A stretch of 19,942 nt of DNA from IMG/VR virus record IMGVR_UViG_2879748301_000007. The stretch is one strand, 5' to 3'. Shown piece after piece: positions 3,001 through 6,000 of the stretch. The position numbers were made by a program. Numbering within the stretch: the first letter of the stretch is position 1; every line of letters begins with the position of its first letter. This stretch comes from a virus (lineage: Duplodnaviria; Heunggongvirae; Uroviricota; Caudoviricetes).

Positions 3001-6000
3001 CCCATTGAAGCGATGTGTCAGGTATTTGGTGTATCCAGGAGCGGTTATTACAACTGGGTACAGCATGAACCCTCAGACAGAAAACAAAGTGATGAGCGGT
3101 TAAAACTGGAGATTAAGGTGGCACATATCCGCACTCGCGAAACATATGGAACCCGGCGGCTCCAGACGGAGCTGGCAGAGAATGGCATCATCGTTGGTCG
3201 TGACCGACTGGCACGTCTTCGTAAGGAGCTGAGGCTACGCTGTAAGCAGAAACGCAAGTTCAGAGCGACTACGAACCCGAACCACAATCTGCCAGTTGCG
3301 CCAAATCTGCTGAACCAGACGTTCGCTCCTACAGCACCAAATCAGGTCTGGGTGGCGGACCTGACGTATGTTGCCACACAGGAGGGATGGTTGTACCTCG
3401 CTGGCATCAAAGATGTTTATACGTGCGAAATTGTCGGCTACGCCATGGGAGAGCGCATGACAAAAGAGCTGACAGGTAAAGCCCTGTTTATGGCGCTCAG
3501 GAGCCAGCGCCCACCTGCCGGGCTAATCCACCACTCTGATCGAGGTTCACAGTACTGCGCATACGATTACCGGGTCATACAGGAGCAGTCTGGTCTGAAA
3601 ACATCAATGTCGCGTAAAGGTAACTGTTACGACAACGCTCCGATGGAAAGCTTCTGGGGAACGCTGAAAAATGAGAGCCTGAGCCACTATCGTTTTAATA
3701 ACCGGGATGAAGCCATCTCAGTAATACGGGAATACATTGAGATTTTCTACAATCGTCAGCGTCGTCACTCTCGTCTGGGGAATATCTCCCCGGCAGCCTT
3801 CAGGGAAAAATATCATCAGATGGCTGCTTAAAAAAAGAACAAATGGTAGTGTCCGCTATTGCCAGTACACCTCATATTGGCTACGTAATTAAAACAGAAA
3901 ATAAAGAAACCCCATTCACTGTAGTTGATATCGACGGTCTATCAGGAAACTTTAAAACTCTTGTTGAAGGTGCCACAAAAATGTGCCTAGTTTACATCGG
4001 AAATAATCTGCCCGCAGAAAAAAAGCCGAATTTCTGGCAAATCTGATTGCAATGAAATTAAAAGGTGAAATCTGAAAAAAAGAAAGCCTGCACAGTGTGC
4101 AGGCCTGAGTGAAGAACCTGGGACATTTATTCATCACTCGCAGTAATTTTAATCTGAGTTGAGGTTAAAAAACAATGAGCACAAAACCACTCTTCCTGTT
4201 ACGGAAAGCGAAAAAATCATCCGGTGAACCTGACGTCGTCCTGTGGGCAAGCGACGATTTTGAATCGACCAGCACCACTCTGGACTATCTGCTCGTTAAG
4301 TCAGGTAAAAAACTGAGCAACTATTTTAAAGCTGTTGCCACAAATTTTCCTGTCGTTAATGACCTTCCCCCTGAAGGTGAGATCGATTTTACCTGGAGTG
4401 AACGCTATCAACTCAGCAAAGACTCCATGACATGGGAACTAAAACCGGGAGCAGCGCCAGACGACGTTCACCACCAGGATAATGCTCAAGAAACCAAAGA
4501 ACTGGCGGGAGGCCAGGAAGAAAACGCGCAGGCAGACGCCCACGAGGATTGCCAGGATTGCGAAGTCTCTGTAGCCACTTTGCGGTTCACACAGCGTCTT
4601 CTGCACATTTTTACGTATGCTGCCGGGGATCTGAAATACCTGCATCATGCCACCCGTGAACAACGCAAACACATTACTGCTCTTGAGATGGATCAGGAAA
4701 ACAGCTATGTCCAGAATCTGCTGTTGGCCATACGCGGCATGGCAGAACCGACAACTCTGGATAATGCCGCCCTGCTCCGCCTGACTGATGCAATTAAGGC
4801 TGAGGTGTACTGGCAATAGCGGACACTACCATTTGTTCTTTTTTTAAGCAGCTATCTGATGATATTTTTCCCTGAAGGCTGCCGGGGAGATATTCCCCAG
4901 ACGAGAGTGACGACGCTGACGATTGTAGAAAATCTCAATGTATTCCCGTATTACTGAGATGGCTTCATCCCGGTTATTAAAACGATAGTGGCTCAGGCTC
5001 TCATTTTTCAGCGTTCCCCAGAAGCTTTCCATCGGAGCGTTGTCGTAACAGTTACCTTTACGCGACATTGATGTTTTCAGACCAGACTGCTCCTGTATGA
5101 CCCGGTAATCGTATGCGCAGTACTGTGAACCTCGATCAGAGTGGTGGATTAGCCCGGCAGGTGGGCGCTGGCTCCTGAGCGCCATAAACAGGGCTTTACC
5201 TGTCAGCTCTTTTGTCATGCGCTCTCCCATGGCGTAGCCGACAATTTCGCACGTATAAACATCTTTGATGCCAGCGAGGTACAACCATCCCTCCTGTGTG
5301 GCAACATACGTCAGGTCCGCCACCCAGACCTGATTTGGTGCTGTAGGAGCGAACGTCTGGTTCAGCAGATTTGGCGCAACTGGCAGATTGTGGTTCGGGT
5401 TCGTAGTCGCTCTGAACTTGCGTTTCTGCTTACAGCGTAGCCTCAGCTCCTTACGAAGACGTGCCAGTCGGTCACGACCAACGATGATGCCATTCTCTGC
5501 CAGCTCCGTCTGGAGCCGCCGGGTTCCATATGTTTCGCGAGTGCGGATATGTGCCACCTTAATCTCCAGCTTTAGCCGCTCATCACTTTGTTTTCTGTCT
5601 GAGGGTTCATGCTGTACCCAGTTGTAATAACTGAGGTGTACTGGCAATAGCGGACACTACCATTTGTTCTTTTTTTAAGCAGCCATCTGATGATATTTTT
5701 CCCTGAAGGCTGCCGGGGAGATATTCCCCAGACGAGAGTGACGACGCTGACGATTGTAGAAAATCTCAATGTATTCCCGTATTACTGAGATGGCTTCATC
5801 CCGGTTATTAAAACGATAGTGGCTCAGGCTCTCATTTTTCAGCGTTCCCCAGAAGCTTTCCATCGGAGCGTTGTCGTAACAGTTACCTTTACGCGACATT
5901 GATGTTTTCAGACCAGACTGCTCCTGTATGACCCGGTAATCGTATGCGCAGTACTGTGAACCTCGATCAGAGTGGTGGATTAGCCCGGCAGGTGGGCGCT

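Follow-up and report, generated by a model that had tools for sequence, protein, structure and literature searches.

An Unannotated Antisense Small RNA Opposite the racC-recE Spacer of Rac-Type Prophages: A Predicted Shigella Copy and Its Mapped Escherichia coli K-12 Orthologue

Results

The racC-recE Spacer in a Rac Prophage Relic

The viral record IMGVR_UViG_2879748301_000007 of IMG/VR (Caudoviricetes; 19,942 nt, hereafter the window) was predicted from its sequence to encode, between positions 4075 and 4174, a small antisense RNA on the minus strand, opposite the 5′ leader of an open reading frame (ORF) of 214 amino acids (aa). The window is a 100% match to a Shigella flexneri chromosome, and the predicted RNA lies in a 926-bp relic of a Rac-type prophage (3875..4800), flanked by inverted copies of a 1264-bp insertion sequence (IS) of the IS3 family (Table 1). 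We report here that this RNA is very likely real, as the Shigella copy of an abundant, unannotated RNA of Rac-type prophages, and that its orthologue in Escherichia coli K-12 has experimentally mapped ends.

The relic was compared with intact relatives, including E. coli FDAARGOS_944, phage Rac-SA53, and the Rac prophage of K-12. In these, the same DNA runs from the 3′ portion of racC across a spacer of about 100 bp into the 5′ portion of recE, the two genes being co-oriented and 100 bp apart within an early-left operon of the order kilR-ydaE-racC-recE-recT-ralR. In the window, the 5′ end of racC was cut off by the IS and a frameshift is found near its 3′ end (4030..4075), where the normal stop codon TGA lies at 4073..4075. 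The listed ORF 3843..4046, which begins within the IS, corresponds to this RacC remnant and covers positions 25-78 of the 91 positions of the family. RefSeq likewise labels the racC copy of FDAARGOS_944 (99.6% identical) as "frameshifted".

The 214-aa ORF (4175..4819) is a truncated recE pseudogene: the fragment is cut at 4800, and its open frame continues into the IS up to a stop at 4817..4819. The predicted RNA does lie opposite the sequence described as a 5′ leader, but the matches to PRK09709 and PF06630 and the comparison with the intact relatives show that it is the spacer between the racC and recE cistrons, within a prophage early operon, and not the leader of a free-standing gene. It had also been stated that no minus-strand protein gene lies upstream of the terminator of the RNA. 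This is true inside the relic, the nearest minus-strand ORF upstream being a fragment of the IS transposase (4844..5647).

Table 1. Features of the racC-recE region and other RNA features of the window (coordinates are those of the window).
Feature	Position	Strand	Remarks
IS3-family element, complete	2611..3874	+	1264 bp; left border of the Rac relic
racC remnant	3875..4075	+	PRK09790 (RacC family), positions 25-78 of 91
Terminator U-tract UCUUUUUUU	4075..4083	-	Adjoins the racC stop codon
Predicted antisense RNA	4077..4139	-	About 62 nt; from the fold and from register with the K-12 start site and Term-seq ends
Intrinsic terminator hairpin AGGCCUGCAC-ACU-GUGCAGGCUU	4084..4106	-	10 pairs, 6 of them G-C; 3-nt loop
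Stem-loop 1, GAGUGAUGAA / UUCUUCACUC	4107..4139	-	10 pairs, one U.U mismatch, 11-13 nt loop; -9.1 kcal/mol alone
Antisense -10 TAAAAT	4146..4151	-	5/6 to consensus; 18 bp from the -35
Weak sense-strand hairpin UUUUAAUCU/AGGUUAAAA	4147..4170	+	-6.3 kcal/mol, z = -1.3; not significant
Antisense -35 TTGTTT	4170..4175	-	3/6 to consensus; overlaps the A of the recE ATG (4175); block identical in K-12
recE (exodeoxyribonuclease VIII, exonuclease VIII), N-terminal fragment	4175..4800	+	PRK09709, positions 1-199 of 877; PF06630 (Exonuc_VIII)
IS3-family copy, partial, inverted	4801..5631	-	831 bp; right border of the Rac relic
Same IS3-family element, full copy	5632..6895	-	
Same IS3-family element, partial copy	6896..7331		
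C4 antisense RNA (Rfam)	8390..8477	-	75.7 bits
isrK (Rfam)	8502..8578	-	61.5 bits
Sigma-70-like promoter TTGAAA-17-TATAGT	8613..8585	-	Best of the window; just upstream of the C4/isrK pair
sok antitoxin RNA (Rfam RF01794)	15678..15853	+	117 bits

Terminator, Fold, and Promoter of the Predicted RNA

A terminator scan of the window recovered the minus-strand terminator, which is a strong one, as the second of 30 terminator-like sites, and the sequence after its stem was reported as TCTTTTTTTC / TCTTTTTTT. The terminator had been placed at 4075..4104, with the last two bases of the stem, which reaches 4106, being missed. Read on the plus strand, the hairpin comes after an A-run and has no T-run behind it, so that it can terminate minus-strand transcription only.

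By register with the K-12 start site described below, the 5′ end of the window RNA would be G4139 or A4138, and its 3′ end would fall in the U-tract at about 4078-4076. The resulting length of about 62 nt (64 nt for the K-12 orthologue) is in agreement with the 60-65 nt RNA, starting just after TAAAAT, of the original prediction. The internal stem proposed at the same time was also recovered, GAGTGA (4139..4134) being paired with TCACTC (4112..4107), and it extends to the longer helix of stem-loop 1. Folding of the RNA had been suggested as a check: a 65-nt window RNA forms two adjoining hairpins at -26.8 kcal/mol (z = -5.0), and none of 200 shuffled sequences folded as well. Both the terminator and the RNA fold are beyond chance. 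A 61-aa minus-strand ORF (3952..4137) starts at the 5′ end of the RNA and crosses the terminator; the possibility that it is coding was dropped, the K-12 sequence having a stop after nine codons.

Every base of the RNA has its complement in the racC-recE spacer, between -36 and about -98 as counted from the recE ATG. Full complementarity to the 5′ untranslated region, as first claimed, thus stands for this interval, but the ribosome-binding site is left uncovered: the 5′ end of the RNA lies 22 nt upstream of the recE Shine-Dalgarno sequence GAGG (4161..4164). A weak hairpin on the sense strand holds the AGG of this Shine-Dalgarno sequence, its 5′ arm complements the antisense -10 hexamer, and it is kept in both alleles of the region described below.

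As for the promoter, the -10 hexamer was found exactly at the predicted position (4151..4146), 24 bp upstream of the recE start codon. The -35 hexamer is present as well, but at 4175..4170 instead of 4174..4169, with a spacer of 18 bp and not 17 bp; as had been noted, it overlaps the ATG of the 214-aa ORF, with which it shares the A at 4175. The promoter, with its -35 on the start codon, fires against the early-left operon. The hexamers taken alone are no better than chance and do not count as evidence, because, under the relaxed criteria of the original prediction, the window contains 41 distinct sites that match as well or better and because a standard promoter scan of the window reported nothing at this position. 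The plausible sigma-70 promoter of that prediction is nevertheless supported by an experimental start site located behind the identical block in K-12, and not by the sequence match.

Mapped Ends of the K-12 Orthologue

The promoter block of the Rac prophage of K-12, which extends from the -10 hexamer through the recE start, is identical to that of the window. The supplement of Romero et al. 2014 (PMC4681348) reports a class I transcription start site (TSS), FWD_(I)-1415447, determined by differential RNA sequencing (dRNA-seq) and numbered on U00096.2. With a coordinate offset of +1976 from U00096.2 to NC_000913.3, calibrated on sokB and rydC, this TSS corresponds to 1417423 in NC_000913.3, which is a G (position 6424 of locus L003) located 8 nt past the last base of TAAAAT, with seven bases between. 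The recE-racC spacer has its own entry in Table S5 of the same study, a small RNA named "t29" and oriented against both genes. It was given without an entry in EcoCyc, EcoGene, Rfam, BSRD, NCBI Gene, or RegulonDB, and Raghavan et al. 2011 was cited as an earlier detection (PMC4681348).

The other end of the RNA is found in Supplementary file 1 of Adams et al. 2021 (PMC7815308), where a Term-seq 3′ end at 1417486(+) is described as "antisense to racC". The average counts at this coordinate were 185,664 and 146,140 in two conditions, compared to 66,698 for SokC and 6,222 for SgrS in the same table, and the coordinate appears three times in the file with three condition tabs (PMC7815308). The flank of this end reads ...AGCCUGCGCCAUACGCAGGCUAUUUCU, and the end itself, GGCUAUUUCU-3′, falls inside the U-tract of the K-12 terminator. 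From TSS to 3′ end, the K-12 RNA measures 64 nt, and it folds with an energy of -24.9 kcal/mol (z = -4.9). These data show that a discrete and abundant short RNA is made in the repressed K-12 lysogen.

The window RNA and the K-12 RNA share an orthologous position, the identical promoter block, a stem-loop abutting the terminator, the same strand relation to the operon, and a similar length (about 62 versus 64 nt). They differ in stem-loop 1, which is largely different, and in the loop and top pairs of the terminator, and the U-tract of the window is longer.

The mapped K-12 ends also bear on another explanation of the Shigella terminator, according to which it would mainly halt minus-strand read-through from the IS copies on its right, a separate small RNA being absent. 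The copies at 4801..5631 and 5632..6895 are indeed minus-oriented and directly upstream on that strand, and read-through from them would also end at this terminator. However, the same terminator and promoter are found in intact prophages without a nearby IS, and the K-12 TSS, 64 nt upstream, defines a discrete RNA. We thus consider this explanation to be extremely unlikely.

The RefSeq annotation of K-12 includes ralA and kilS in this operon and no feature in the racC-recE spacer. In our literature search, racC was never found together with an antisense or small RNA term in the main text of searchable papers. The K-12 orthologue is catalogued in supplementary tables, yet it has never been named in annotation or studied. 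A search against the 4227 models of Rfam gave no match at 4075..4175 at gathering thresholds, and in a permissive search the best sub-threshold scores were at most 16 bits, compared to thresholds of 41-55, so that no family (sok, C4, isrK, and the rest) could be assigned. The K-12 RNA likewise has no match among the Rfam families.

Two Alleles of the Antisense Module

The region was gathered in 206 copies from IMG/VR phage contigs, E. coli genomes, and phage records. The spacers fell into three classes: allele A, which is the window type (80 copies), allele B, which is the K-12 type (116 copies), and a class devoid of the antisense module (10 copies). Alleles A and B share one sequence over the stretch that begins with the -10 hexamer and includes the recE start, and also over the last racC codons, whereas most of the RNA body differs. 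On the minus strand, both encode a 5′ stem-loop that abuts a G+C-rich hairpin, with a U-tract behind it.

Among the 19 distinct variants of the two alleles, 96.8% of the cells of the terminator helix are paired, and its covariation score was reached by none of 500 shuffles. Three terminator pairs are changed on both sides between the alleles (A-U/U-A, A-U/G-C, and C-G/U-A). In stem-loop 1, read by eye, the two alleles have the outer stem xAGUG/CACUx in common, with a flipped basal pair that is G-C in one allele and C-G in the other. The alleles are effectively two deep lineages, so these changes amount to few independent covariation events. Single-sided stem transitions gave a G.U pair on the RNA strand in five cases, an A.C in two, and a mismatch on both strands in one, a difference that is not significant.

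Since covariation in a palindrome is blind to the strand, the hairpins could instead serve the sense mRNA, as a stabiliser of the racC 3′ end or as a processing site, or be mere palindromes, with minus-strand transcription as tolerated noise that serves no selected function. The sense leader folds well too (z = -3.1 in the window and -4.3 in K-12), and the module travels with racC and not with a particular downstream gene. Because compensatory changes preserve the hairpins of both strands, the assignment to a strand rests on the U-tract and on the K-12 experimental data, and these point the other way: the U-tract is present on the minus strand only (the hairpin of the sense strand follows an A-run and lacks a U-run behind it), the 3′ end that was mapped is antisense with very high counts, and a discrete class I TSS exists. 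This reading therefore appears quite improbable.

Throughout the 206 phage-region loci, the module accompanies racC, including a RacC variant with another C-terminus, and it precedes two downstream N-termini, MSTKPLF... and MSTDKQ.... The gene with the latter N-terminus (loci L096, L136, L177, L091, and L206) has only the first three codons and the ribosome-binding region in common with recE, the mosaic junction being located exactly at the start codon. In the class without the module (about 10 of 206; L015, L016, L152, L195, and others), the recE start is preceded, at a distance of 23 nt, by the end of another gene, whose C-terminus is ...FFYAI; the module is absent, including the -10 hexamer, and homology returns at AATCTGA...GAGTTGAGG. 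As this third spacer type, which has a different gene, carries no module, the module belongs to the racC cassette rather than to recE.

The module is widespread in complete E. coli genomes, allele A being found in 263 and allele B in 1594 of 5426, which together make up about a third; strains of O145 and O111 are among the carriers of allele A. Among the matches listed, the matching segment either had no annotation or was labelled "hypothetical protein", "phage protein", or racC, and in no case was it an RNA.

The terminator loop (window 4094..4096; loci L001-L207) is a mutation hot spot, in a spacer that is otherwise nearly invariant. Seven loop triplets were seen on the RNA strand of allele A (GUU in 31 copies, ACU in 23, AGU in 14, ACA in 6, GUC in 3, UGA in 2, and UCU in 1), and four loops in allele B (CCAUA in 93 copies, UAUGG in 16, UCAUA in 4, and GCAUA in 3). 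ACU and AGU, like CCAUA and UAUGG, are reverse complements, so the hairpin has been "flipped" independently in both alleles. Such loop flips are typical of template switching at palindromes.

Comparison with Known Antisense RNAs

The RNA has its own start opposite the mRNA, as given by the K-12 class I TSS behind the identical TAAAAT, and a defined 3′ end at an intrinsic terminator, as given by the hairpin and U-tract of the window and by the K-12 Term-seq end. It is an uncharacterised and unannotated RNA of a well-known class, the cis-antisense small RNAs.

Among members of this class, GadY is an E. coli cis-antisense RNA located opposite the gadX-gadW intergenic region; it depends on RpoS and binds Hfq. 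Like GadY, the racC-recE RNA lies opposite the spacer of two co-transcribed genes, racC and recE being adjacent, co-oriented, 100 bp apart, and co-induced. It also overlaps the 3′ end region of the upstream gene and not a ribosome-binding site, and duplex-directed processing would be expected to separate the cistrons in both cases. The two RNAs are unrelated in sequence, however, dependence on RpoS and binding to Hfq are properties of GadY, and processing at racC-recE is only predicted.

A phage counterpart is OOP of lambda, a 77-nt RNA made in lysogens that acts through RNase III cleavage of the paired mRNA. Both are short phage RNAs that run against an early operon and stop at a strong intrinsic terminator. 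OOP overlaps the 3′ end of the cII coding sequence in the rightward operon, whereas the racC-recE RNA covers a non-coding spacer only, in the leftward recombination operon, and the two show no sequence similarity.

The C4 RNA of P1/P7 (RF01695) and the copy-control RNAs of plasmids are structured antisense RNAs, phage-borne in the case of C4, whose specificity is set by sequence differences between alleles; the racC-recE RNA likewise has two alleles that share an architecture and not a sequence. C4, however, is processed from a longer transcript and blocks translation of ant, while allele-specific action at racC-recE is hypothetical. The window itself contains a C4 RNA, unrelated to the racC-recE RNA, beside isrK (Table 1), an arrangement known from P1/P7-like and lambdoid prophages, in their immunity and anti-repressor regions. 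The sok match of the window indicates a type I toxin-antitoxin locus of the hok/sok type. A type I antitoxin of the Sok, Sib, Rdl, or RalA type was also considered for the racC-recE RNA and was rejected: the overlapped spacer is non-coding and without an ATG, its neighbours are RacC and RecE, and there is no toxin ORF.

RalA is encoded by the same Rac prophage, in the early-left operon and transcribed against it, as is the racC-recE RNA. It differs in its length of about 180 nt and in its location opposite rcbA and ralR, and no toxin gene is found at racC-recE. RalA is reported to act on the ralR toxin mRNA through a pairing of 16 nt and with Hfq (PMC4041452). The racC-recE RNA also has the organisation of FinP-like clients of FinO/ProQ, with two stem-loops of which the terminal one is a terminator hairpin with a U-tail; it departs from FinP in that the ribosome-binding site of the target is not covered.

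Another possibility is that the RNA acts mainly in trans, or as a protein-bound RNA such as a client of ProQ or Hfq, on targets located elsewhere in the prophage or in the host, its complementarity to the spacer being incidental. The RNA is abundant in the repressed lysogen, where its cis target is barely made, and RalA of the same prophage is a trans-acting antitoxin RNA. Moreover, it has a terminator hairpin with a U-tail, a general feature bound by Hfq and FinO-domain proteins. On the other hand, no chimera or binding record was found for this RNA, the sole recE entry in an Hfq-CLASH supplement being an internal recE fragment with CyaR. In addition, the RNA body is nearly all different between alleles A and B, which suits a cis pair that automatically co-varies better than a conserved trans seed. 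Action mainly in trans thus seems rather unlikely.

Discussion

The 4077..4139 element of the window is best explained, in our opinion with a reasonable degree of probability, as a cis-antisense RNA of about 62 nt, carried by Rac-type prophages, that pairs with the racC-recE spacer and damps or uncouples the expression of recE. Depletion of RacR induces racC, recE, and recT together, and a sense target transcript therefore exists. When the early operon is transcribed, the RNA would probably pair with the bicistronic mRNA through mirror-image hairpin loops, and the resulting duplex of about 62 bp would be open to cutting by RNase III. After cleavage, racC would end in a protective 3′ hairpin and recE(T) would have an exposed 5′ end, subject to decay, and the net effect might be to damp leaky or early expression of recE relative to racC. 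This regulation of the overlapped mRNA is inferred.

The face-to-face promoter may add some transcriptional interference to this effect. One could go further and propose that the convergent promoter is the functional element, polymerase at the recE start interfering by occlusion, as a sitting duck, or by collision, with the RNA as a by-product. The promoter opposes the operon from a position right at the recE start, K-12 data show that it is active, and the tight terminator limits antisense transcription to about 64 bp. However, a by-product needs neither a conserved second hairpin nor high stability, yet both alleles keep two hairpins and the RNA accumulates; with a weak -35, the level reached may depend more on stability than on how often the promoter fires. 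Interference as the sole function is thus, in our view, distinctly unlikely.

Several points weigh against cis-antisense control of recE, or limit its extent. The evidence for expression comes from K-12, that is from allele B, and not from the window allele or from Shigella. In addition, the K-12 unit defined by gRNA-seq measures 143 nt (PMC4681348), which suggests some read-through of the weaker K-12 terminator, the window allele having a longer U-tract. Conservation of the promoter block is not independent evidence, because this block also holds the recE ribosome-binding site, and the compensatory changes of the palindromes keep hairpins on both strands, the single-sided changes favouring the minus strand by just 5 to 2. 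At the functional level, recE is still strongly induced upon RacR depletion, so that any repression must be partial, and a direct block of translation is unlikely because the RNA stops short of the recE Shine-Dalgarno sequence. Finally, our literature search found no experiment, in any strain, linking the RNA to the levels of recE or racC.

Bobonis et al. (bioRxiv 2020.06.22.160242) reported that racC and recE form a linked pair of blocker and trigger for retron toxin systems, and a device lowering RecE relative to RacC would make biological sense in this light. A more elaborate scenario, which we regard as very unlikely, is that the RNA is an allele-specific controller of the RacC:RecE ratio that may also target early transcripts when a Rac-like phage of the same allele superinfects. 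Such an action is conceivable because the resident prophage makes the RNA constitutively. The divergence of alleles A and B and the loop variants might then represent escape from cross-regulation, comparable to the heteroimmunity of P1/P7 through C4 or to the incompatibility RNAs of plasmids.

In the window, the RNA gene is most likely an intact relic that has lost its original job, since both flanking Shigella genes are pseudogene fragments. The IS elements that broke up this region form a nest of four copies of a single element, two full and two partial and in both orientations, which fragments the prophage DNA; its size and host suggest IS600.

From the point of view of genome annotation, this study illustrates how a prediction made from sequence can be upgraded with public maps of TSS and 3′ ends. 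The K-12 3′ end is more abundant in Term-seq than that of SokC or SgrS, and yet the RNA is unannotated. With both neighbouring genes destroyed, the Shigella locus itself is only a relic, and the relevance of the RNA lies in the biology of Rac prophages, of RecET, and of retrons: recE encodes both a retron trigger and the nuclease of RecET recombineering, and racC is a reported blocker of retron toxins. A regulator located at the racC-recE junction could explain how the prophage holds recE expression down, or offsets it from that of racC.

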